Shown piece by piece: positions 10,725-62,975 of a DNA stretch of 64,000 nucleotides. A program made the translations under genes and the position numbers. The stretch comes from a virus: the IMG/VR virus record IMGVR_UViG_3300046674_000532. One strand, written 5' to 3'. Positions within the stretch are counted from its first letter, which is position 1; each line of letters opens with the position of its first letter. The notes beneath the pieces are model-generated. The model saw only the letters and a program-made list of their open reading frames with translations, was not told where the DNA came from and searched no databases.

Positions 10725-11828
10725 CTATACCGAGGGAACCTCCAGTCCAGCGCTGTCCGCGTACTCGTTCATCACACGCAGCGCCTTCACAAACGCACCC
10801 GTCGGCATCTTCCGGATGAGGTGCTGTGCAACGAAGTTCCCGTCGTCGTAGGGCAGGGTCCGCGGCGCAGGGTCCCCGCCGTCCTCGGCCTGCTGGACGG
10901 TCCGCGGTTCAGGGATCGGCTGCTCCGCCAGCACCACCGCGGGCGCATGGAGGTCCGGTGCGGTCTCCGGGACCGGAGCAGGGCCCGGCATCGGATCGGC
11001 ACCTGCTGGCTTGGACTTGGAGACGTCCGGAATTATCACGCCGTGATATTCGGCGGGCCCGGCCGAGCGTTCCGGCGCCGGGTATGGCGCGGGTTGCGGC
11101 GAAGCCGACCGGGCGGCCGCCTGGCTTTGAGCGGCTTCGGCGCGCGCGTCGGCCTTCTCAACCTGCTCCTGCGGGGTCAGCTTCCCGAGGTTGCGGACGT
11201 GCTCCACCCTGCGTGCACCGGTGACGAGGTCCTTCTGCAGCTCGGGGGTGAGCTTCAGCAGGGACAGCTTGGTGGAGAGCGTGGCCTGCGGGATCCCGAG
11301 CCGTTTCGCGGCCTTGAGCTGGGACCCGTAGTGGTCCACCAACTGCTTGAGCGCGTGGGCCTCCTCGAGGTCCGTCATGTCGTCGCGGTGGTAATTCGCG
11401 ATGAACGCGGCCTCGAGGAGGGTCTCGTCGGTGGCCAGCCGCGAGTTGTCGACCCTGACCGGGATGGTGGCCAGTCCGACGCGGCGGGAGGCCTCGAGGC
11501 GTCGGTGGCCGTCGATGACGACGTACTGGGCTCCGTCGTCGATGTCGTCGGCGCGGGCGGCCCGGTCACGGAGATAGGCCTCTGTCGTTCCGACGACGAT
11601 GGGCAGGATGATGCCGACCTGGCGGACGGACTCCACGGTCTCGTCGAGGTTGCGGAGGTGGTTGCGCGGGTTGTCGGGGTTGTCGCTGATCAGCGTGACG
11701 GGCAGTTCGGTGATGGCCGCGGTCGCTGCCGCGTCCCCTCCTATGGCGCTGTTGATGGCGTCGCGCCGTGGGCTGCGCCGGGCCGCGGCGAAGGCGGGCG
11801 CCGGGCCGAGGGTGTCGGCCTTGCTCAT
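10725..11828 (-). CDS. parB: ParB/Spo0J-family partition protein
   Basis: ParB N-terminal box ...YVVIDGHRRLEASRRVGLATIPVRV..., followed by an HTH (AAKRLGIPQATLSTKLSLLKL). Its start overlaps the parA stop. Confidence 0.85.
   Translation of the reverse strand: MSKADTLGPAPAFAAARRSPRRDAINSAIGGDAAATAAITELPVTLISDNPDNPRNHLRNLDETVESVRQVGIILPIVVGTTEAYLRDRAARADDIDDGAQYVVIDGHRRLEASRRVGLATIPVRVDNSRLATDETLLEAAFIANYHRDDMTDLEEAHALKQLVDHYGSQLKAAKRLGIPQATLSTKLSLLKLTPELQKDLVTGARRVEHVRNLGKLTPQEQVEKADARAEAAQSQAAARSASPQPAPYPAPERSAGPAEYHGVIIPDVSKSKPAGADPMPGPAPVPETAPDLHAPAVVLAEQPIPEPRTVQQAEDGGDPAPRTLPYDDGNFVAQHLIRKMPTGAFVKALRVMNEYADSAGLEVPSV
11032..11051. promoter_or_regulatory. parS-like palindrome AATTATCACGCCGTGATATT (copy inside parB)
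   Basis: Same ATTATCACG-N-CGTGATA(A/T)T motif as the two copies upstream of parA. GC-clamped flanks (CCGG...GGCGG). Confidence 0.55.
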
Positions 11829-12988
11829 CGGGTGGCCCCCTTCGCGACCTGCCGCATGGCCTCCGCCTGGTCGGACAGGGGTGCGTACGACAGCAGCGGC
11901 ATCCGCTTGCGGACCGCTTCCCGCTGTTCCTTCAGATCACCGATGACGGCCAGGACTCTCGGGTCACCGATGGCCTTCCAGCTATCCAGGGAGGAGGTGG
12001 CGACGTAACCGCGGCGCGAGTCGTACAAATTGACGACCAGGCCGAGGTAGTCGACGTCCAGGCTGAGGTCTTCGCACAGGGCTTCGATCTGCTGGTCGAG
12101 CATGCTGTACGCGGTGGCGGAGGAGTCCTCGGCGAGGACGGGAATGATGACGCCGGACTTGCCCTTGGCCTCGTTGCGGCGGCGGCGCGCGTAGTAGAGG
12201 GCGGCGTCCATGGCGATGCCGAGGCTGGGCGGGCAGTCCACGACGATGACGTCGTAGTCGGCCTCGAGGGGACGAAGTGCCATCTCCAGGGCGACTTCCT
12301 TCTGGAAGCCTCGCTTGTTCGCGGACAGGACGGCGATCCTCGAGTCGAGGAGGAATCCGTCGAAGCAGGCGGGCAGTACGTGCAGTCGCTTCTCGAACCG
12401 CGGATCGTCTATGACCACGACCAGGTCGCGGAGGTCTCCCTTGTCCTCGCCGCACATGTGGGAGACGAGGCTGTCGTGGTCGGGTGCGATCTGCAGGACA
12501 CCGAGTTGCTCGCTGAGGTGGCCTTGCGGGTCGTAGTCGACGAGCAGGACGCGCTTGCCCTGCTCGGCGTACGCCTGGGCGACGCCGGCGGAGATGGCGG
12601 TCTTGCCGACGCCGCCCTTCTGGTTGCAGACGACCTTGCGTTCGGCTTCTTCGTCCTGGGCGCCGTGCTGCGGGGAAGGGTTGGCGTCCAGCCACATCCG
12701 GACCGACTGCGCGAGGCCCTGGGTGTAGGAGACGGAGCGTTCGGTGCAGGCGTCCTTGAACGCGTCGTACTGGCCGGACGGGAGCCATGTGGAGAACGAG
12801 CGGGCGCCGGCCGTGTCGATGTCCGGGCTGATGCCGGGTTCGGCGCGCCATTGGGCGATGCCCGCGGTGACGGCGTCCTGGATGTCCAGGCCGAGCTCGG
12901 CGGCGCGGACCTTGAGTGCTTGTTGGAGCGCCGAGGGCAGCTTCGACGCTACCTTTTCCCGGTCTCCTTGGAGATATGGAGAGGCCAT
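11825..12988 (-). CDS. parA: ParA partition ATPase with a roughly 110-aa N-terminal DNA-binding-like extension
   Basis: Deviant Walker A NQKGGVGKTA, followed by VLLVDYDPQGH. The long N-terminal extension is as in type Ia ParA and has two RHH-like segments. Confidence 0.9.
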   Translation of the reverse strand: MASPYLQGDREKVASKLPSALQQALKVRAAELGLDIQDAVTAGIAQWRAEPGISPDIDTAGARSFSTWLPSGQYDAFKDACTERSVSYTQGLAQSVRMWLDANPSPQHGAQDEEAERKVVCNQKGGVGKTAISAGVAQAYAEQGKRVLLVDYDPQGHLSEQLGVLQIAPDHDSLVSHMCGEDKGDLRDLVVVIDDPRFEKRLHVLPACFDGFLLDSRIAVLSANKRGFQKEVALEMALRPLEADYDVIVVDCPPSLGIAMDAALYYARRRRNEAKGKSGVIIPVLAEDSSATAYSMLDQQIEALCEDLSLDVDYLGLVVNLYDSRRGYVATSSLDSWKAIGDPRVLAVIGDLKEQREAVRKRMPLLSYAPLSDQAEAMRQVAKGATR

Positions 12989-24989: not shown

Positions 24990-25958
24990 ATGCTCATTTC
25001 GCCCCGCCCGGGCACCGACCGGGACAACCTCCTCCAGACCCTGCGGTCCGTGCACACCAGCGCCTCCAACGAGCACGGCCGCGGCTACGACAACGCCTAC
25101 AAGCGGCTGCTGGGATATCTGGAGTGGGCGATGGGCGCAGCCCGGCTGCTGCGCAACCAGATCAGCACCGAGGACCTGCACGCCTTGGTACTGACGAAGG
25201 GCCACGACACCCTGCTGAACGGCATCGGCGACCTCGAGGGTTCACGACGGGAACGCCTGGTGAACCTGCTTGTCGACCAAGAACTCGCCGAGCGCACCGA
25301 GGCACTCGAGGCCACAGTCAACCTGCTCCAATCACTGAGGCACCGCTGGCCAGGACACGAACGGTTCGTTGTCGCCGACCCCAGCTTCTACATCCAGAAC
25401 GAGATCAAGCTGGCCGACGTCGACCTGCACCAGGTGCTCGGCATCCGGGAAGAGGCCTTCATCCGGCTGCTGTTCCCCATCGTGGTGGTCGACGAGCTCG
25501 ACGGGCTGAAGGACGCGGGCAAGCCGCGGCCCCGGTGGAGGGCAGCCCACACACTCGGCCTCCTCGACGGGGTCCTGAACGGCGACACCGAAGGTGTTCT
25601 GCACCCCGGAACCTACGACCCCAGCAACGGGGAGACCCTGGGTAAAGTCATCGTGGAAATCGTCCTCGATCCTCCCGGGCATGTCCGCCTACCGCTGGCC
25701 GACGACGAGATCGTCGACCGGGCGGTCGTCCTCCAAGCCCTCGGCGGCCGCGACGTACGTCTGCTGACGTGCGACACCAGCCAGCACACCCGCGGCTGCG
25801 CGGCCGGCCTGCAGGTGACGAAGGTCGCGACGAAAGACCCCGGCCCCGAGCCCGACTGGGAGGCCGAGGGCAAGCCGGGGACCGGCGTACGGGCGCAGCG
25901 CCGCGCCAGGCAGGAAGCCAGGAACGGCAGTTCCGCCGAGGCGCCCGCGAACTCATGA
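24990..25958 (+). CDS. PIN-domain nuclease with an N-terminal helical domain (322 aa)
   Basis: Four acidic positions in PIN order: FVVADPSF, VVVDELDGL, DDEIVDRAV, LLTCDTSQ. The 3' end overlaps the recombinase 3' end by 6 nt (convergent). Confidence 0.65.
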   Translation: MLISPRPGTDRDNLLQTLRSVHTSASNEHGRGYDNAYKRLLGYLEWAMGAARLLRNQISTEDLHALVLTKGHDTLLNGIGDLEGSRRERLVNLLVDQELAERTEALEATVNLLQSLRHRWPGHERFVVADPSFYIQNEIKLADVDLHQVLGIREEAFIRLLFPIVVVDELDGLKDAGKPRPRWRAAHTLGLLDGVLNGDTEGVLHPGTYDPSNGETLGKVIVEIVLDPPGHVRLPLADDEIVDRAVVLQALGGRDVRLLTCDTSQHTRGCAAGLQVTKVATKDPGPEPDWEAEGKPGTGVRAQRRARQEARNGSSAEAPANS

Positions 25959-27101
25959 CCCGGCAGGCCCGGCCTCCTTGACGGCTGCCTTCCCGATCTG
26001 CGCGAGCGGGTTGTTCTCGCCCTGGGCGTCGTCCTCGTCTACGTAGCCGATCAGCGCTTTGGACTGGTCGTCCCAGCCGCCGTGCCGGCCGATCTGCACG
26101 ATGTCGACGCCCGCGGTCCGGGCCGACTTCACGAAGCCGCGGCGGGAGGAGTGGGAGCGCCACCGGCCCGGCAGCCCGGTCCGCTCGATGGACCGCTGGA
26201 TGACGTCGGAGGCGGCCTCGGTCGTCAGCCGTCCGTCCTCGGCGCCGATAGGCTCACCGCCACGCTGCATCTCCGGGTTGAGGTAGCCCCAGCGGTCCAT
26301 GCGCAGGAACAGGGGGCCCACGGTGTGTCCGTTGTCGGCGAGGGCGGCAACCAGGGCGCGGACCGCGCGGACGGCGCACAGGTCGGGTTCGGGGTCGAGC
26401 GGAATGTCGGGGGTCTGCCACATCTTGCGCTTCTTGCGGTAGACGCGGACCTGCAGACCGCCGTCGGGGAGATCGGTGAAGCTGTCCGGCCAGTTCAGCG
26501 GCACGAGTTCGCTGCCGCGCGAGGCCAGCGCGTGACCGAGCAGCATCAGGGCGGCGTCCCGCTTCCCTGCCAGGGTGGTGCGGTCCAGCTCACCGAGCGC
26601 GGTGCGCAGGACGGTCCGGTCGGCGGGGCTCGCCTTCTGCGGGCGGGCGGCCGGGTCCTGGGCGAGGGCGAGCTGCTCGCGGTAGCCGGCCACGACCTTC
26701 CGGGCGCCCATGGTGTCCGGGGGCCGGTACCCGGCGGCCCGGTGGGAGGAGCGGATGGACGCGATGACGCGGTCCATCGTGTTCGGTCCGTACGGGCGTC
26801 CGGTGCGCGGCCGCGGAGTGCGCTTCAGGTAGGAGAGGTACTCGGTGACGGTCTGCGGCGCAGCCGGCAGCGGGCGGCGGCCGACGGACAGGCACCATGC
26901 GGTGAAGCGGTCCATGTCGCCCTTGTACGCCTTGGTGGTCTCCTCCGGGATTCCGGCCTTGACATCCTGCTGGGCTTCCTCGGACAGCCAGGCGTCCGGG
27001 TCCTCTTCCGTCAACGGGACGGCGGGGGCCCGGTCTTCGGGGATGGCGGGCAGCCGGTCGTCGACCAGCTCCGCGTCGACCACCTCGTCGCGCATGCTCA
27101 C
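25953..27101 (-). CDS. Tyrosine recombinase (integrase or plasmid dimer resolvase)
   Basis: Catalytic set present: ALASRGSELVPL (Arg), WRSHSSRRGF (HxxR), GRHGGW (Trp), ALIGYVDE (Tyr). The N-terminal SAM-like domain includes TVTEYLSYL. Confidence 0.9.
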   Translation of the reverse strand: MSMRDEVVDAELVDDRLPAIPEDRAPAVPLTEEDPDAWLSEEAQQDVKAGIPEETTKAYKGDMDRFTAWCLSVGRRPLPAAPQTVTEYLSYLKRTPRPRTGRPYGPNTMDRVIASIRSSHRAAGYRPPDTMGARKVVAGYREQLALAQDPAARPQKASPADRTVLRTALGELDRTTLAGKRDAALMLLGHALASRGSELVPLNWPDSFTDLPDGGLQVRVYRKKRKMWQTPDIPLDPEPDLCAVRAVRALVAALADNGHTVGPLFLRMDRWGYLNPEMQRGGEPIGAEDGRLTTEAASDVIQRSIERTGLPGRWRSHSSRRGFVKSARTAGVDIVQIGRHGGWDDQSKALIGYVDEDDAQGENNPLAQIGKAAVKEAGPAGS

Positions 27102-54037: not shown

Positions 54038-54069
54038 CTGTCCAAGTCCTCCCAGACTCGTACTGTTTC

Positions 54070-54084
54070 CAGGCCCCGCGCCTG
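54070..54084 (-). promoter_or_regulatory. Start-associated motif CAGGCGCGGGGCCTG (minus-strand sense), copy a
   Basis: 33 nt upstream of the scaffold start. Flanked by GATC (TGATCTCAGGCGCGGGGCCTGGA). Confidence 0.5.
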
Positions 54085-55995: not shown

Positions 55996-56013
55996 AGCGA
56001 TCCTTCCGCTATC

Positions 56014-56028
56014 CAGGCCCCGCGCCTG
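56014..56028 (-). promoter_or_regulatory. Start-associated motif CAGGCGCGGGGCCTG, copy b
   Basis: 19 nt upstream of the portal GTG. Context TGATCACAGGCGCGGGGCCTGGA overlaps the nuclease stop codon region. Confidence 0.5.
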
Positions 56029-56427: not shown

Positions 56428-58050
56428 CTATCGGCGGCCGCGGAGGCGTTGGTCGCGGTAGTTGGAGGTGCCGAGGCCCTGGGTGGAGGGGTCGGCGAGT
56501 TCGGTGAGGGCGTGGACGGCGGCGTCCATGCGGTCGGGTGAGTCCATGCCGGGGATCCAGGTGACCATCTGGCCCTCGAGGCGGGGGAATTCGCCGAGGT
56601 GGTGGACGAGGCCTTGGGCGTAGAGCTGGGCGATGGGTTCGGCGCGTAGCCGTTTGCCTTGCTTGGCGTGGACTTCGATGATCGATGGCATGAGGAGGCC
56701 GCGGGTTTCGCCTCGTTCGGCAAGCTCTTTCCAGGCCTGGCGGATGATCTGCTTGGCCATGTCGCCGCCGAAGTTGGCTTCGACGACGATGGCGTCGGCC
56801 TGGTACTCGATGGCGAGTTGGCAGGCGGCGAGGCCCCAGGTGTCGGCGCCCATGCGGTCGGATGCGTCGGCGAGGAGGTAGAGGTGGCCTTCGCGGTCGC
56901 GTCCTGCTGCGCACAGGCCGGCTTCGTCGTTTCCGTCTCCTTCTCCGCCGGCGTGGTCGACGGCGACGATGCTGCGGGTGAGGTCGATGCCGCGGAACGC
57001 CATGGGGGTGATGCGGTGGTCGGTGATCCATGGCCATTTCCACACGCCGCCCTCGAGTGGGCGGGGTTTTTGCATGTAGAGGGACCACCAGACGCGTTCC
57101 CCGACGGCGCGGCGGATCTTCTGGAGGGCTTTGGTGCCGTAGCGGATGGGCCACAGGGGGCGGCCGATGTCGCGGCCGAGGGCGTCGTTTTCGCTGTCGG
57201 CGATGGCGGGGAGGTCGAGGATGGTCCAGTCGTCGGCGTCTTCTCCGGCGAGGATGCGGCCGGCGAGGTCCTGTTCGTGCCAGCGGGTCTGGATGACCAG
57301 GATGGATCCGCCGGGTTCGATGCGGGTGTTGAGGACGGATGTCCACCAGTCCCACAGGCGGCGCCGCATGGTGGGGGATTCGGCGTCGGCGGCGTCTTTG
57401 ATGGGGTCGTCGACGACGGCGAGGTGGGCGCCCTTGCCGGTGAGGCCGCCGCCGACGCCTGCGGTGACGAGGCCGCCTTCGAGGCGTTCGCCGGTGTCGG
57501 GGTCGGCGAGGTCGAACCGGTTCGCCGCTTTGCTGCCGGAGTGGAGGGCGAGGCCGATCTGGGGGCCGTAGGAGACGATCGCGTCGCGGATCCACCGTCC
57601 GTGGTCGTCGGCGAGGTCCGCGGAGTATGAGGCGATCATGACGCGGTGGTCGGGGTGCCTCGACAGGTACCAGAGCGGCGCCCACCGGGCCGCACGCCGG
57701 CTTTTGCCGTGCCGCGGAGGCATGGTGATGAGGACCTTGCGGGGCCGGCCGCGGGCGATGTCGCGGAACACCTGGTCGATCAGGTCCAGGTGGCGGGCCT
57801 GCTTCTCCTTCCCGTCGGTGAGGATCGCCGACATGGCGCCCGGCGACCGCTTGAGGGCCATGTCGCGTTCGACCCCGGCGAGGACGGTGCGGACCTCTCC
57901 ACTGGCCCGGCAGGCGATATGGCGGCGCTGAGCCCGGTTCAGGCGCCGGTACTGGGCGACCAGTTGGAGTAGCTCCTCCGCTCCCTGGACGACGTCATCA
58001 ACGTCCTCGTCGTGCCCCGGGCCGACGTCAGGTGTCGTCGCTGTGGTCAT
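56428..58050 (-). CDS. Terminase large subunit (540 aa)
   Basis: Walker A-like MPPRHGKSRRAA, then ...VMIASYSADLADDHG... and a C-terminal nuclease-type acidic region (IVAVDHAGGEGDGNDEAG). Confidence 0.9.
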   Translation of the reverse strand: MTTATTPDVGPGHDEDVDDVVQGAEELLQLVAQYRRLNRAQRRHIACRASGEVRTVLAGVERDMALKRSPGAMSAILTDGKEKQARHLDLIDQVFRDIARGRPRKVLITMPPRHGKSRRAARWAPLWYLSRHPDHRVMIASYSADLADDHGRWIRDAIVSYGPQIGLALHSGSKAANRFDLADPDTGERLEGGLVTAGVGGGLTGKGAHLAVVDDPIKDAADAESPTMRRRLWDWWTSVLNTRIEPGGSILVIQTRWHEQDLAGRILAGEDADDWTILDLPAIADSENDALGRDIGRPLWPIRYGTKALQKIRRAVGERVWWSLYMQKPRPLEGGVWKWPWITDHRITPMAFRGIDLTRSIVAVDHAGGEGDGNDEAGLCAAGRDREGHLYLLADASDRMGADTWGLAACQLAIEYQADAIVVEANFGGDMAKQIIRQAWKELAERGETRGLLMPSIIEVHAKQGKRLRAEPIAQLYAQGLVHHLGEFPRLEGQMVTWIPGMDSPDRMDAAVHALTELADPSTQGLGTSNYRDQRLRGRR

Positions 58051-58531
58051 CCAGTGCGCCTTCGTCGCCCTCGTCGGGGGCTTCGTCGTCCTCGGGATCG
58101 GGGTCGCCTGCTGCTCCGATCAGGCTGCGGAGTTCGGCGATGCTGGCCTGGCTGATGGGGACGGCTCCCCCGCCGGGCCCGGACACCTCGGCGCGGATGG
58201 GTTCGGCCACCCCGTACAGGCGGATCCGTTCGGCGATGAGCCGGCGGGCCGCCTCGACGGCCTTGAGGTCGCCCTTGAGCGCTTTGGGCCACACGGCGGC
58301 CAGGAGGCGTTCGAAGCGGGCTCCTTCGACCTCGCGCAGGTTCTCGACTGCTTCCTTCTCTTCCAGCCGGTTGCGCTGGATGGCGCGCCAGAAGTCTTTG
58401 CGGGCAGCGCCGTCGTCGGCGTAGTCGAGGCGGTCGGCGATGGCTTCGAAGTCCATGCCGGCGAGCTTCAGTGCGATGAGCTGCTTGCGTCGCTGCGCGG
58501 TGACGGCCTGCTGGGCTTTGGATGCGGGCAT
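58028..58531 (-). CDS. Terminase small subunit (167 aa)
   Basis: N-terminal HTH-like region (RRKQLIALKLAGMDFEAIADRL), central coiled coil and acidic tail. Overlaps the large-subunit start. Confidence 0.7.
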   Translation of the reverse strand: MPASKAQQAVTAQRRKQLIALKLAGMDFEAIADRLDYADDGAARKDFWRAIQRNRLEEKEAVENLREVEGARFERLLAAVWPKALKGDLKAVEAARRLIAERIRLYGVAEPIRAEVSGPGGGAVPISQASIAELRSLIGAAGDPDPEDDEAPDEGDEGALDDHSDDT

Positions 58532-58620
58532 CAGTCGTCACCGTCCTGGGCGGTGGTGAGGTCGTGTTCCTCGCCGGCTGCCTGCTGGTGGGTGTGGCTG
58601 CTGTGTGCGCTGGTGGTCAT
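58531..58620 (-). CDS. Possible 29-aa leader ORF upstream of the small terminase
   Basis: MTTSAHSSHTHQQAAGEEHDLTTAQDGDD, GC3-rich. TGATG overlap with the terS start. Its 5' leader is near-identical to that of gene 61590..62165. Confidence 0.3.
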   Translation of the reverse strand: MTTSAHSSHTHQQAAGEEHDLTTAQDGDD

Positions 58621-58654
58621 GGCGGTGGGGGCTCCCGCTCGTATGTCTGACTGT

Positions 58655-58669
58655 CAGGCCCCGCGCCTG
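58655..58669 (-). promoter_or_regulatory. Start-associated motif CAGGCGCGGGGCCTG, copy c
   Basis: 35 nt upstream of the 58620 ATG. Part of a roughly 65-bp leader (58616..58680) that is duplicated at 62161..62221. Confidence 0.55.
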
Positions 58670-58795
58670 CTCCTGATGATCCCTGGTTTCCTCCGTTTCC
58701 TTCCCCCAGCAGGGGTGTTGCGCGTGGCCGGGAGGGGGGCCGGGTCGCGGGCCGGCGGGCGGTGCTGCTCCCCGAATTAGGTTGTCCATCTCATG

Positions 58796-58824
58796 TTGAC
58801 GGCCCATCGGGGCTCCGTTAGATT
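58796..58824 (+). promoter_or_regulatory. Near-consensus sigma-70/HrdB-type promoter TTGACG-17nt-TAGATT
   Basis: -35 at 58796..58801 and -10 at 58819..58824. Followed by GTCCAT, then the GGAGGGAG RBS (58849..58856) and the ATG at 58862. Confidence 0.65.
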
Positions 58825-58861
58825 GTCCATATCAACACGACAACCTACGGAGGGAGCACCG

Positions 58862-59299: not shown

Positions 59300-59635
59300 A
59301 TGACCGACTCCTCCTCCACCACCCGCTTCCAGGCCCGCAAGGCGCGCTCCGGCTGGTACGTCCAGGACTCCGTCACGGGCGACGTGTGGACGGGACTGTC
59401 CCGGCCCGGTGTGGACAACCTGATCGGCCACCTCGCCAAGGACAGGGCGTCCGCCCCGGTGGTCACGGCGGTCGCGGACGAGCCCGCCACCGCGGACGAG
59501 CCCGGCCAGCAGCCGCTGTGGGTGGAGATGATGGGCGCGGACTTCGGCGAGAGCCGTGGGCCGGTGCAGGGTTCGCTGTTCCAGGCTCCGGATGCGTGCG
59601 GAACGCTGGACCTGTTCGCCGCCATGGGCGAGTAG
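59300..59635 (+). CDS. Hypothetical protein (111 aa)
   Basis: Track ORF. ATG with GAAAGGA upstream. Confidence 0.55.
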   Translation: MTDSSSTTRFQARKARSGWYVQDSVTGDVWTGLSRPGVDNLIGHLAKDRASAPVVTAVADEPATADEPGQQPLWVEMMGADFGESRGPVQGSLFQAPDACGTLDLFAAMGE

Positions 59636-59672
59636 CTTGTCTCTATCAGAACGACTATCTATGGAGGTTGTG

Positions 59673-60032
59673 ATGGGTGCTGAGCCCGCAGGGCTGCCGG
59701 ACGCCGACGAGCTGATCGCCGTGGCGCAGGGGGCGCTGGCCGGCGGCACGGCCGACGACGCGCGCCGCGCGCTGGACGCTTACGCCCCGGCCGTCGACAC
59801 GCTGGTCGATGCGGCCGCGGCCGCGGCGTGGCTGGGCATCTCGCCATCCTCCATCTACCGCGAGCGCTCGCGCGAGCGCGCGGACGGGACGCCCGGCTGG
59901 CCCGACCCGGACAGGAAGTTCGGCCGGTCGGGGGTCTGGAGCTACCGGACGCTGGTGCTGCACCGGGCGACGATGCCGGGCCGGGGTTCGGCCGGCCGGG
60001 GTCGTCCGCGTCGGGCCGGCCAGTCGGGTTGA
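59673..60032 (+). CDS. HTH DNA-binding protein, excisionase/MerR-like (119 aa)
   Basis: ATG at 59673 has GGAGG 6 nt upstream. AAAWLGISPSSIYRERSR is HTH-like. The C-terminus is basic. Confidence 0.55.
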   Translation: MGAEPAGLPDADELIAVAQGALAGGTADDARRALDAYAPAVDTLVDAAAAAAWLGISPSSIYRERSRERADGTPGWPDPDRKFGRSGVWSYRTLVLHRATMPGRGSAGRGRPRRAGQSG

Positions 60033-60058
60033 CGGGGTTCTCACCCGGAAGATAGGTT
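60029..60058 (+). promoter_or_regulatory. Near-consensus promoter TTGACG-18nt-TAGGTT giving a leaderless ASCH mRNA
   Basis: -35 at 60029..60034 and -10 at 60053..60058. The ATG at 60065 lies 6 nt after the -10 and has no RBS. Confidence 0.6.
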
Positions 60059-60064
60059 GTCCAT

Positions 60065-60505
60065 ATGGACGAGACAAGCTTTCAGGATGCCCTGTTCGCC
60101 ACGGACACCGAGCCCACGCCGTACGTGCTCACCGTGAAGCAGCCCTGGGCGTGGGCCATCATCCACGCGGGCAAGGACGTCGAAAACCGCAGCAGGCCTG
60201 TCAACTACCGGGGCAAGCTGCTCATCCAGGCTGGCAAGAGCTACGCCCCCGAGGGTGACAAGTACCTGCGCGATCTGGGCATCACTCCCCCGGCCGACCT
60301 GCCGCGCGGCTGCATCATCGGCTCTGTCGAGGTCGTCGGCTCCACCAGCCGGTCCACCTCCGAGTGGGCCATGGACGGATACCAGCACTGGCTGCTCGCC
60401 GACCCGAAGCCTGCTGCGCAGCTCCTGCCGTGCCGGGGATCGCTGAGCATGTTCCGCGCCCCCGAGGGTTGGGAGCAGGCGTTCACGTCGCCTTCGGGGG
60501 CATGA
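60065..60505 (+). CDS. ASCH-domain protein (146 aa)
   Basis: LTVKQPWAWAIIHAGKDVENRSRPVNYRGKLLIQAG matches the ASCH N-terminal pattern (..QPWA..I..G.K..E.R......G...IHA). Confidence 0.7.
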   Translation: MDETSFQDALFATDTEPTPYVLTVKQPWAWAIIHAGKDVENRSRPVNYRGKLLIQAGKSYAPEGDKYLRDLGITPPADLPRGCIIGSVEVVGSTSRSTSEWAMDGYQHWLLADPKPAAQLLPCRGSLSMFRAPEGWEQAFTSPSGA

Positions 60506-61574
60506 ACTCGAAACTGCGCGTGAGAAGGCGTCGGGGGTCGGAGTAGCGCTTCCTCAGCGAGCCCGTGAGGCTCTTGCCGGGCTTTCCTGTACTCACCTTC
60601 CCGGTCTCGCGCCAGCGTGGGGAGCGCACGCAGTAGGCGATGACTGCCGGATGGGCGACAACTCGCCTGTAACGGCAGCCTTGCTGGTACAAGTGCTGGC
60701 CGATCCATTCGGAGATACGGCCGCTGATCCCCAGCCCCTGGTAGTCGGGCAGGACGACGGACCGGTGGTCCATCTTGATGTTCTTCGCCTGGGCGTGCGG
60801 GAAGTGCATGTAGGCGCTGAAGGCTACGAGGTCGTCACCGATGAAGCCGCCGAAGCAGCGTGCGGAGCGGTTCAGGTCGGCGCTCAGATAGTGATGGCGG
60901 CGAAACAGCGGCCAGACGGTGTGATCGACCTGGTGGATGCGGAGTTCGAGCGCGGGGTGGGGTTGAACCTGCCTCCACGCGAAGGAGTTGGCCGCGACGT
61001 CGAACACCCAGTCGGGCTGGAGCCAGTCGGTGACGTCGTAGTGGCAGGTGACGGCGACGAACTGGCGGTCCTGGCGGCGCACTGCCTTTTGCACCGTGTG
61101 GGAGGCGACCTTGGCGACCTGACGGTCGACGACCGAGGTGAACTCGTCGACGACGACCAGGCCGTCGGTCTCGGCGAGGGAGCGGGCGATGGAGGCACGG
61201 AACGCCTCGCCGTTGGACAGCGTGTGGTGCGGGCGCATCCACGCGGGCGGTGAGCCGAGGCCGACCGAGGTGAGCAGACCGATGATGTCCTTGATGCTCA
61301 TGCTGGCCGGGAAGTCGTCGAGCAGCGACGCGTCCGGGGACCATACATAGTTCGCGGCCATCTCCTCGGGCCACACGTGCCGGGCCAGGGTGGACTTGCC
61401 TGCTCCGGAGGGTCCGACGATGAGACCGACGTTCCAGGGCCGGTCCTCGATGGGCAGGTTCGCGTCGAGGGTGTGGCCGGCTTTCTGCTCGATCGGGACG
61501 TCGAACATGCCGGCCATCTGCAGGACGCGGGCGGAGCTGCAGACGGTGGTGCTGACGTTGACTTGTGCGCGCAT
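60483..61574 (-). CDS. ABC-type ATPase fused to a GNAT-like acyltransferase domain (363 aa)
   Basis: Walker A GPSGAGKST, ABC signature LSNGEAFR, Walker B LVVVDEFTS. The C-terminal half has RSVVLPDYQGLGISGRISEW (acetyl-CoA Q/RxxGxG/A-like motif). Confidence 0.7.
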   Translation of the reverse strand: MRAQVNVSTTVCSSARVLQMAGMFDVPIEQKAGHTLDANLPIEDRPWNVGLIVGPSGAGKSTLARHVWPEEMAANYVWSPDASLLDDFPASMSIKDIIGLLTSVGLGSPPAWMRPHHTLSNGEAFRASIARSLAETDGLVVVDEFTSVVDRQVAKVASHTVQKAVRRQDRQFVAVTCHYDVTDWLQPDWVFDVAANSFAWRQVQPHPALELRIHQVDHTVWPLFRRHHYLSADLNRSARCFGGFIGDDLVAFSAYMHFPHAQAKNIKMDHRSVVLPDYQGLGISGRISEWIGQHLYQQGCRYRRVVAHPAVIAYCVRSPRWRETGKVSTGKPGKSLTGSLRKRYSDPRRLLTRSFEFMPPKAT

Positions 61575-61589
61575 GCCGGGGTGTCCCTT

Positions 61590-62165
61590 CTATGCCATGA
61601 GGGCGCGGACGCGGCGCCCTTCGGCGGCCAGCCGCTCGAGGAGTTCGGTCTGCTGCTGCTCGTCCAGGCATTCGACGATGACGCCCCACGTTGCTTCGGT
61701 GTCCTCGATGGGGGCGTCGCCCTCTTCGGGGAGCTGCGGGGGGACGATCAGTGCGGCGACGTCTTCGTCGGTGTATCCGGTGCCTTCGTAGTCGCCGTCG
61801 AGGTAGGAGATGAGTTCGGCGAGGGCGTCTTTGTCGTTCTCTCCGAGCTCGGCGGTGCGGTTGTCGGCGAGGTTGATCCGGCGGGCGGTGTTGTCGTCGC
61901 AGACGACGACTTCGCAGCGGGCTGTCTCGTGCCCTTCGGCGGCGAGCCCCTGCATGGTGTGGTTGCCGGCCAGGACAATGAGGGGGCCGTCAGGGATTTC
62001 CCGGACGACGAGCGACCTGTACTGGCCGTTGCGGCGGAGGGATTTGCGGATGGCGTCGACGTCGCCGCGTTTCGCGTTGCCGGGGAACGGGGTGAGTTCA
62101 TCCAGGGGGATGTCGGCGGTGCGGACGTAGGTGACGCCGGCGTCGGAGTCGGTGCTTTCGGTCAT
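61590..62165 (-). CDS. ParB-like nuclease (ParB/Srx N-terminal) domain protein (191 aa)
   Basis: LTPFPGNAKRGDVDAIRKSLRRNGQYRSLVV...LAGNHTMQG follows the ParBc pattern (..NPR......l..Si...G...P..V....i.G.HR). The C-terminal half is acidic. Confidence 0.75.
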   Translation of the reverse strand: MTESTDSDAGVTYVRTADIPLDELTPFPGNAKRGDVDAIRKSLRRNGQYRSLVVREIPDGPLIVLAGNHTMQGLAAEGHETARCEVVVCDDNTARRINLADNRTAELGENDKDALAELISYLDGDYEGTGYTDEDVAALIVPPQLPEEGDAPIEDTEATWGVIVECLDEQQQTELLERLAAEGRRVRALMA

Positions 62166-62193
62166 GGCGGTGGGGCTCCCGCTGTGTGGTTGT

Positions 62194-62208
62194 CAGGCCC
62201 CGCGCCTG
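62194..62208 (-). promoter_or_regulatory. Start-associated motif CAGGCGCGGGGCCTG, copy d
   Basis: 29 nt upstream of the 62165 ATG, within the duplicated leader 62161..62221. Confidence 0.55.
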
Positions 62209-62267
62209 TCACAGATGATCGCCGATTTCCGTGGTTCTGTTCCCTGCGCCCTGGTTGGGGCGTCACG

Positions 62268-62975
62268 ATGCCCGGCATGAGAGATGTGCGTGTGAGGGGG
62301 GCTGTGGCGGCGTGTGTGGCTGCTGCGGTGGTGGTGTTGGCGGGTTGCGGGGGCGGATCGGACGACGGCGGGAAGTCGAAGGCGTCGCCGTCGGTGTCGG
62401 CGGTGGGTTCGTCGCCGCCTGCTGAGGTGGAGCCGTCGCCGACGTATCCGCCGGGCCCGGAGGGGGATGTGGACCGGGCCGTGGATGAGGCGGGTCTGGT
62501 GTATGACGATTCGTCGTACACCGATGCGGCCGCGTTCGTGCAGGACATCTGCGACTCGATGGTGACGCAGTCGAAGAACTGGAACCCGGCGCAGTGGCTG
62601 GCGGAGGGTGGCTATCTCGGGGATGACGGGGAGCAGATCCTGGATGTGGGGGTGCCGAAGCTGTGCCCGCGGTGGAAGTCGGCGTTGAAGCAGGCGGAGG
62701 CGGGGACGTACGTGCGGTTCATCTCGTCTGGGGAGTTCGAGGTGAAGGCGGATCCGGCGCCGTATGACTCTGACAGCGATTCGGATGTTGAGGAGATCAA
62801 GGCGGGCACGTATGTGGCGCGGGGGCATTTCTCGGACTGCTACTGGGAGCGGACCGGGGCGGACGGTCAGATTATTGAGAATCGTGCGGTGACTCAGGCG
62901 ACGCGGATGACGGTGACGTTGCGGGTTGGGGAGCTGTTCTCGAATGACTGCGGGACGTTTCGGCCGGTCGGCTGA
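62268..62975 (+). CDS. Lipoprotein (235 aa)
   Basis: Signal peptide with lipobox AAVVVLAGC, then a Ser/Pro-rich linker. The mature domain has four Cys. Confidence 0.7.
   Translation: MPGMRDVRVRGAVAACVAAAVVVLAGCGGGSDDGGKSKASPSVSAVGSSPPAEVEPSPTYPPGPEGDVDRAVDEAGLVYDDSSYTDAAAFVQDICDSMVTQSKNWNPAQWLAEGGYLGDDGEQILDVGVPKLCPRWKSALKQAEAGTYVRFISSGEFEVKADPAPYDSDSDSDVEEIKAGTYVARGHFSDCYWERTGADGQIIENRAVTQATRMTVTLRVGELFSNDCGTFRPVG

Follow-up and report, generated by a model that had tools for sequence, protein, structure and literature searches.

A ParB-like protein and an ABC ATPase-GNAT fusion form a conserved gene pair in phages, possibly for acylation of nucleic-acid bases

The viral record IMGVR_UViG_3300046674_000532 (IMG/VR) was analysed over a stretch of 64,000 nucleotides, which we call the window. 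Its minus strand carries a two-gene operon that is the subject of this work: a gene for a ParB/Srx-fold protein of 191 amino acids (aa) and pI 4.3 with a ParB N-domain (61590..62165) and, starting 15 nt past its stop codon, a gene for a 363-aa fusion protein. Residues 1-200 of the fusion form an ABC-type ATPase domain with Walker A and B motifs, signature and H-loop (60975..61574, minus strand), and the rest of the gene encodes a GNAT domain with the motif YQGLGISGR, a basic tail and the stop codon (60483..60974, minus strand). On the plus strand, a gene for a 146-aa ASCH-domain protein of the TRIP4/ASC-1-like 'GKER' subgroup (60065..60505) converges on the fusion gene, the two overlapping at their 3' ends by 23 nt (60483..60505). 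An earlier note on this DNA had described these three open reading frames (ORFs) and their convergent overlap, and the coordinates bear it out: GC content at third codon positions is 0.87-0.89 in all three, typical of coding DNA in a window of 69% GC, and an independent gene caller predicted the same three proteins with the same neighbours on two metagenome contigs. A search of phage records for near-identical DNA gave short 75% matches only, so the window has no annotated close relative among them.

The pair is widespread. The fusion was found by tblastn in 75 phage records with hosts among the Actinobacteria, Firmicutes, Proteobacteria, Bacteroidetes and Spirochaetes; searching a large protein database brought up more than 7,400 homologues, and for the GNAT half alone there are 581 cluster representatives at E<=1e-10, in most of which it occupies residues ~200-360 of a chain of 360-390 aa. 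Cultured phages with the pair include the Gordonia/Rhodococcus phage Jace, Lactococcus P335, Leptospira LE3 and LE4, Arthrobacter EastWest and Gordonia phages of the DR cluster. Linkage was assessed in two non-redundant samples, one of 65 viral loci and one of 61 genomic loci, bacterial and in a few cases archaeal, taken from genomes and metagenome-assembled genomes such as those of Streptomyces, Nonomuraea, Planctomycetes and Endozoicomonas. A ParB-like gene lies directly upstream on the same strand in 63 of the 65 viral loci, and ParB is present in 59 of the 61 genomic ones. Six separate 50%-identity clusters (P0322, P0343, P0350, P0353, P0360 and P0363; 569-605 aa) consist of single-chain ParB-ABC-GNAT fusions, and in P0088 (536 aa) the order is reversed to ABC-GNAT–ParB, with a C-terminal Zn-ribbon-like CPDCGYRW. 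We conclude that ParB and ABC-GNAT are a tightly conserved functional unit in which ParB is an obligate partner.

Variants of the architecture were also seen. Phages of Streptococcus, Oenococcus, Lactococcus and Tenacibaculum (loci L002 4962-6031, L250 2977-4046 and L251 2384-3556) have the ABC and GNAT parts annotated as two ORFs, and tblastn matches there fall into two or three pieces, consistently across many records; this could reflect a genuine division into two genes, a programmed frameshift or an annotation error made repeatedly. Phages of ~110 kb (Nickievirus, Stenotrophomonas BUCTxx99 and the Rhizobium RHEph10 group) carry two ParB-like genes and then a stand-alone ABC ATPase homologous to the N-terminal half only, a few genes upstream of the large terminase (L252 1650-3816, L253 1334-3606); the ORFs that follow these ABC-only variants in the Nickievirus and Stenotrophomonas phages had no Pfam match. 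A further ParB-ABC-GNAT fusion suspected in locus L054 proved to be an out-of-frame stop-to-stop artefact.

That an ABC nucleotide-binding domain (NBD) is joined to a GNAT-like half in one polypeptide, as the earlier note had read from the letters, is supported by motif conservation, by Pfam and by structural models of the halves. Walker A (GPSGAGKST), signature (LSNGE), Walker B (LVVVDEF) and H-loop (CHYD) are all present, as is an acyl-CoA (acyl-coenzyme A) motif, VVLPDYQGLGISGR, which includes YQGLGISGR. Among 38 homologues (58-84% identity), G54-K60, L119, S120, G122, E123, D143-E144, H178 and Q279-G280/G282 are invariant or nearly so. Pfam matched ABC_tran at 1.3e-7 and Acetyltransf_1 weakly (0.0058); most homologues have precomputed Pfam GNAT matches, the combination in homologues being PF00005 with PF00583/PF13508. 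A full-length AlphaFold model (pLDDT, the predicted local confidence score, 88.5) retrieved ABC NBDs only in Foldseek, and the GNAT half was modelled on its own (pLDDT 86.8). The ABC half resembles transporter-type NBDs and SufC; the best PDB sequence match of its profile is the ribosome-binding ABC-F protein ExpZ (5.6e-10), which is no better than the transporter NBDs. The GNAT half (residues ~201-320, pI 9.8) matches generic GNATs in the PDB, including RimI, 2ae6, 1y9k and Naa50, at E ~1e-5 and template-modelling (TM) scores of 0.55-0.6. Among viral models (BFVD) its best matches are family members and then generic GNATs, with several ~555-aa 'Endonuclease-like' proteins also present; the Mom protein of Salmonella phage FSL SP-031 is at rank 6 (E 7.6e-6, TM 0.52), comparable to generic GNATs. 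A conserved tail (residues 321-363, pI 11.4) has the signature SPRW…DPRRL…FE(Y/F)xPP. NCBIfam and PADLOC gave generic ABC or weak matches only for the cassette, which argues against a known defence system.

The upstream protein has the ParB/Srx-fold domain that had been proposed for it: it matches phrog_723 at 5e-44, and a profile of its family matches the N-domains of Spo0J, Noc and ParB at 3e-14 to 5e-11. The profile was needed, as a PDB search with the single sequence gave no match; PF02195 was matched weakly by an identical protein from a metagenome contig. The word 'nuclease' in the earlier description is an annotation label and not an observation from the window. Nor is this a canonical partition ParB, with a helix-turn-helix (HTH) and a dimerisation domain: domain scans gave no HTH match, and the protein is short, at 191 aa; past the N-domain it has an acidic linker and then a conserved C-terminal mini-domain particular to the family, …PEEGDA…WGVIVECLDEQQQTELLERLAAEGRRVRALMA. 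Across the family the consensus of this mini-domain is …GDA…GVVVECxxExxQxxLLERLxxEGxxVRAL. Box II reads AGNHT, a Thr standing where the Arg that binds NTP would be, and many relatives have AGHGR; in ParB-fold proteins that have been tested, changing this Arg to Ala abolishes NTP binding (PMC12704722). The same study reports ParB-acetyltransferase fusions. The subfamily also matches the N-termini of DNA methyltransferase families (phrog_498 at 2e-21; PADLOC MTase_II), and there is experimental precedent for such a role, as ParB-like proteins are established activators of phage thymidine dioxygenases (PMC13229309) and DpdB is a further ParB-like cofactor in DNA modification.

A partner without DNA-binding features would also suit a protein acetyltransferase for host takeover or virion maturation, of the phiKMV Rac or RimI type, with ABC and ParB as regulators. 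RimI, Ard1/Naa50, NatE and GCN5 are among the top Foldseek PDB matches of the GNAT half, and RNA polymerase is a known target of acetylation by phage GNATs (PMC7824862). These structural matches are weak and generic, however, at 8-15% identity; protein acetylation would leave the ASCH linkage described below unexplained, and the accessory genes of some relatives, for PanD and CoA-transferase or for a formyltransferase, point to unusual acyl donors of the sort typical of nucleic-acid hypermodification or metabolite chemistry. We regard this explanation as distinctly unlikely.

Those accessory genes are of two kinds. A CoA-transferase-III-like gene comes straight after ABC-GNAT in 14 of the 65 viral loci, in 12 of them with a gene for aspartate decarboxylase (PanD) in between; in phage Jace, for instance, gp87 matches PanD at 2e-33 and gp88 matches CoA_transf_3 at 2e-8 in Pfam (L001 6110-7221; the arrangement recurs in L018, L022, L023, L029, L036, L038, L040, L041, L046, L047 and L054). 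This variant suggests that β-alanyl-CoA is the donor in those phages, and it predicts a precise mass for the product, a β-alanyl group of +71 Da. Mu-like phages of Burkholderia, Pseudomonas and Porphyromonas have a PurN-like formyltransferase gene instead (Formyl_trans_N 2.9e-21 for phiE255 gp30), and upstream of ABC-GNAT they encode a protein of only 40-55 aa (L003 4840-6733, L248 2876-4601, L249 2855-4730), the phiE255 copy of which matches the ParB-partner profile with an E of 9e-9. In Porphyromonas phages this small protein is annotated as an 'acr candidate'. Neither the PanD/CoA-transferase nor the formyltransferase association with ABC-GNAT was found in the searchable literature, although Iyer et al. 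2013 may contain them. The window itself has none of these genes (PanD, CoA-transferase, formyltransferase), so its donor is presumably a host acyl-CoA.

As PanD and CoA-transferase are metabolic enzymes, the cassette could instead serve small-molecule or anti-defence chemistry, the GNAT acylating a nucleotide signal, an antibiotic-like compound or an amino acid and the ParB/Srx fold acting as a phosphotransferase. Many GNATs do have small-molecule substrates, free N4-acetylcytidine (ac4C) is a substrate of ASCH enzymes, and the ParB/Srx fold includes kinases, the family profile of the ParB partner matching the free serine kinase SerK and sulfiredoxin weakly. But there are no transporter or other pathway genes nearby, and the basic tail, the ABC clamp, the full-length ParB fusions and the late-gene context are more typical of enzymes that act on polymers. 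We consider small-molecule chemistry quite improbable.

The ASCH protein belongs to the ASCH superfamily, as had been proposed, and keeps the Lys, Glu and Arg of ac4C deacetylases, but it is TRIP4/ASC-1-like and not YqfB-like. Pfam gave no match for the window protein itself; some homologues carry PF04266, and the family profile matches the ASCH domain of human TRIP4/ASC-1 at 1e-18 and EOLA1 at 1.7e-5. In its octapeptide, G36-K37-D-V-E40-N-R42, the residues K37, E40 and R42 are invariant among homologues (GKxxExR). Against E. coli YqfB, hhalign gave a probability of 0.05%, and Glu40 stands where the YqfB subtype (GKTR) has Thr. A recent preprint (10.64898/2026.02.27.708502) found that all 19 ASCH proteins tested, TRIP4-ASCH and EOLA1 included, remove ac4C from tRNA and that the Lys and Glu are essential.

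An ASCH gene lies no more than 1.5 kb downstream of ABC-GNAT in 14 of 61 viral and 15 of 53 genomic loci, and 28 of these 29 are convergent. In a terminase-matched control only 1 of 34 loci has an ASCH gene (odds ratio ~12.6, p=0.0025). Streptococcus phages have a different ASCH subfamily in the same place, co-directional with ABC-GNAT (Pfam ASCH 1e-5; hhalign against the window family 0.6%). ASCH is therefore a facultative yet non-random partner of ABC-GNAT, with two unrelated subfamilies involved in two phyla. A three-gene module as the conserved unit is not supported: the ParB/ABC-GNAT pair is tight and the ASCH linkage is not random, but most ABC-GNAT loci do without ASCH, and among 80 viral ASCH homologues just 7 have ABC-GNAT nearby while 73 do not.

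Alternatively, the target of the cassette could be RNA, the ATPase-GNAT being a functional analogue of TmcA that works on cytidine or another base of tRNA or rRNA, of the host or the phage, and ASCH the matching eraser of ac4C in tRNA. This has in its favour the analogy with the ATP-dependent enzymes TmcA and NAT10, the deacetylation of tRNA by every ASCH protein tested, among them the TRIP4 domain nearest to the window protein, and the ABC-F protein at the head of the PDB sequence matches of the ABC profile. That match does not rise above the transporter NBDs, however, and homology to TmcA is limited to the generic GNAT motif, with no tRNA-binding domain. An obligate partner of ParB fold, with relatives fused to DNA methyltransferases, and a gene position in the late operon or in the place of mom also speak against RNA as the substrate. 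On balance we find an RNA target rather unlikely.

Gene position varies between phage groups. In actinobacterial, streptococcal, Pasteurella and Leptospira phages the cassette lies directly before terS/terL, and in Mu-like phages it follows the tail-fibre genes, the 'mom' position. In the window, terS (58028..58531, minus strand) and terL (56428..58050, minus strand) are separated from ABC-GNAT by four plus-strand genes, for proteins of 134 aa and 111 aa, an HTH protein of 119 aa (59673..60032), which adjoins the 5' side of the ASCH gene and is noted for context only, and the ASCH protein. The whole arrangement recurs in L012, the nearest relative by synteny, which retains the HTH gene along with ASCH. 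The ParB/ABC-GNAT operon has a leader (62160..62244, minus strand), with a hairpin, CAGGCGCGGGGCCTG, and a block spanning the ribosome-binding site (RBS) and ATG; a second copy (58615..58705, minus strand), with the same hairpin and RBS/ATG block, lies 5' of a 29-aa ORF and terS. The two are ~74% identical, with a block identical at 16 of 16 positions across the RBS and ATG, which confirms that the operon has its 5' leader in common with terS. In terL relatives the leader element stands directly 5' of terS. The nearest relatives by terL (59-91% identity) were represented by 34 non-redundant loci, and the cassette is missing from every one; it is therefore an accessory that has been inserted between the late leader and terS. 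The common leader implies that the cassette is wired like the packaging genes, with ASCH in an oppositely oriented and differently controlled block.

The shared leader, and a place immediately upstream of terS/terL in many unrelated siphophages, might also suggest that the pair aids the terminase in genome recognition or processing, in a terS-like or pac-site function that involves no base modification. We think this very improbable: the closest terL relatives package without the pair, Mu-like phages carry it at the opposite end, beyond the tail-fibre genes, T4-like and jumbo phages have it in other places again, and an intact acyl-CoA motif would not be expected in a packaging factor.

The hairpin CAGGCGCGGGGCCTG occurs four times on the minus strand (54067-54084, 56011-56028, 58652-58669 and 62191-62208), each time in intergenic DNA of the late operon, where 0.4 would be expected by chance. 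Six viral contigs of related phages (L170, L172, L173, L190, L192 and L195) also have it just 5' of terS. An Rfam scan of 58-64 kb found no match for the common leader or hairpin, which may be a regulatory or processing element of the late operon. Before the ASCH gene lies a promoter- or operator-like element (60029..60080, plus strand) of the form TTGACG(60029)-18-TAGGTT(60053)-6-ATG. The claim that ASCH has its own leaderless consensus promoter needs to be softened: the geometry is leaderless, TAGGTT ending 6 nt before the ATG, but the candidate scores 8/12, under the threshold of the consensus scan. The element is nonetheless recurrent. A 28-nt motif, TAGGTTGTCCATATGGACGAGACAAGCT (TAGrTTGTCCATAT…GACAA), which contains the inverted repeat TTGTC/GACAA, is found four times on the plus strand (58778-58805, 58819-58846, 59633-59660 and 60053-60080), 5' of plus-strand genes between terS and ABC-GNAT; its 14-nt core occurs three times against 0.04 expected by chance, and one of the copies, preceded at a distance of 17 nt by TTGACG, scores as a promoter in the scan. 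From its letters the motif looks like a -10 element with an overlapping operator.

Some other features of the window deserve mention. The 29-aa ORF, MTTSAHSSHTHQQAAGEEHDLTTAQDGDD (58531..58620, minus strand), has a stop codon that overlaps the terS start (TGATG) and is translationally coupled to terS; its RBS and first two codons (ATG ACC) are as in ParB, and the metagenome gene caller predicts it too. A 235-aa ORF (62268-62975, plus strand) runs divergently from the ParB operon; its N-terminus, …VVVLAGCGGGSDD…, is of lipoprotein type, it had no match in Pfam, and it may be a moron or a gene for lysogenic conversion. A canonical partition pair is encoded elsewhere on the minus strand, with a ParB at 10725-11828 (ParB_N 4.7e-12, HTH_ParB 3.6e-10) and a ParA-type ATPase at 11825-12988 (AAA_31 8.7e-26, CbiA 6.7e-19), and a tyrosine-recombinase-like gene lies at 25953-27101. 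Given these genes, the virus is possibly a phage-plasmid, or the window may span more than one element.

Taken together, the evidence leads us to propose that the pair is an accessory, late-expressed cassette in which ATP, with the help of ParB, drives the acylation of a base in nucleic acid; the likeliest substrate is phage DNA that has been replicated and awaits packaging. We put this a little short of an even chance. In the mechanism that we infer, the acidic ParB-like protein would dock via its C-terminal mini-domain onto the basic ABC-GNAT protein, ATP binding would close an ABC sandwich dimer on the substrate and present a base to the GNAT site, and there an exocyclic amine would receive the acyl group of acyl-CoA. 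The donor for the window cassette might be acetyl-CoA, and relatives with aspartate decarboxylase and CoA-transferase would both make and use β-alanyl-CoA. The ASCH protein, under a putative promoter of its own, would most likely strip off the same kind of N-acyl mark; its substrate would be incoming DNA at a different stage of the cycle or else RNA or nucleotides acylated off target. That the cassette acts on cytosine N4 is pure conjecture. As a functional analogy, with the ATPase and GNAT as writer and ASCH as a potential eraser, the writer/eraser reading is partly supported.

Several observations weigh against acylation of phage DNA. By its modelled fold the GNAT half appears nearest to generic small-molecule and protein GNATs (RimI, Naa50, 2ae6), and such a fold would confer no specificity for nucleic acids. 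The ParB partner is very acidic (pI 4.3) and lacks an HTH and, in the window, the Arg of Box II, and to judge from these features it may make no contact with DNA. All demonstrated ASCH substrates are RNA or free nucleosides (preprint 10.64898/2026.02.27.708502), ~72% of ABC-GNAT loci have no ASCH gene (~28% have one), and the gene lies away from the packaging genes in T4-like and jumbo phages. In addition, our literature search found no experimental work on any member of the ABC-GNAT family.

A bolder version of the proposal is that DNA acylation is reversible and occurs in phages of many phyla, with a late-expressed ParB–ABC-GNAT writing an N-acyl group on an exocyclic amine (e.g., cytosine N4) in virion DNA and a separately transcribed TRIP4-like ASCH amidohydrolase erasing it; the group would be acetyl in the window, β-alanyl in phages with PanD and CoA-transferase and another group in those with the formyltransferase. 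We judge it unlikely; if true, it would give acylated DNA bases their first enzymatic pair of writer and eraser. Should the family acylate DNA at all, it would add a new chemical class to phage DNA modifications, amide-linked acyl or aminoacyl groups derived from acyl-CoA, which would matter for restriction and CRISPR evasion and for artefacts in sequencing. The recurrent ASCH neighbour and the 2026 findings on ASCH domains as ac4C deacetylases make the writer/eraser hypothesis concrete and testable, and the ASCH–ABC-GNAT linkage might in turn inform the question of the substrates of human TRIP4 and EOLA1. On its own the window cassette is of modest significance, an ordinary member of an already predicted family; what sharpens the hypothesis is the obligate ParB, fusions included, the convergent ASCH, the donor-supply variants and the common late leader.

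The earlier note knew of no described system with this composition. This does not stand: Iyer et al. 2013, as restated in 2021 (PMC7824862), had already predicted that a GNAT coupled with an ABC ATPase acylates a DNA nucleobase. The system they predicted has the same fusion architecture and ParB neighbour as the window, and nothing essential differs. The window fusion matches that of the exemplar, Tenacibaculum phage pT24, at 32% identity over 86% of the query (tblastn, E 4e-45), the pT24 locus being annotated as two 'ABC transporter ATP-binding' ORFs. According to PMC7641849, Iyer et al. 2013 also proposed GNAT-EVE proteins as DNA-base acetylators, in operons nearly always encoding ASCH, and ASCH domains as readers of modified bases.

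Among characterised enzymes the comparison that had been drawn was with TmcA and NAT10, and it proved to be one of concept. TmcA and NAT10 are ATP-dependent cytidine N4-acetyltransferases of tRNA and rRNA, and like the window fusion they combine an NTPase and an acyl-CoA-using GNAT in one polypeptide. They have, however, a RecD-like helicase/ATPase and a tRNA-binding domain, where the window fusion has an ABC domain and no tRNA-binding domain, and the obligate ParB partner of ABC-GNAT has no counterpart in them. A TmcA/NAT10-like GNAT half, as the earlier note had suggested, was not borne out: hhalign against E. coli TmcA aligned only the acyl-CoA motif (63 columns, 5.7% probability), and no such protein appeared in the top 50 Foldseek PDB matches. 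The Mom protein of phage Mu is a GNAT-fold enzyme that modifies adenine N6 in DNA. It resembles the window enzyme as a late-expressed phage GNAT, and the ABC-GNAT genes of Mu-like phages are located after the tail-fibre genes; unlike ABC-GNAT, Mom consists of one domain and lacks both an ATPase and a ParB partner, and its donor is glycyl-tRNA (PMC13219725). The ASCH amidohydrolases (TRIP4 ASCH, EOLA1 and TthASCH) have the GKxxExR octapeptide in common with the window protein, which differs in being phage encoded. Finally, ParB-fold cofactors such as 5mYOX-ParB, DpdB and DndB, and the ParB-methyltransferase fusions, share with the window the placing of a ParB N-domain beside, or fused to, a nucleic-acid-modifying enzyme, whereas the subfamily described here is set apart by its own C-terminal mini-domain, which survives alone, as a protein of 40-55 aa, in Mu-like phages.

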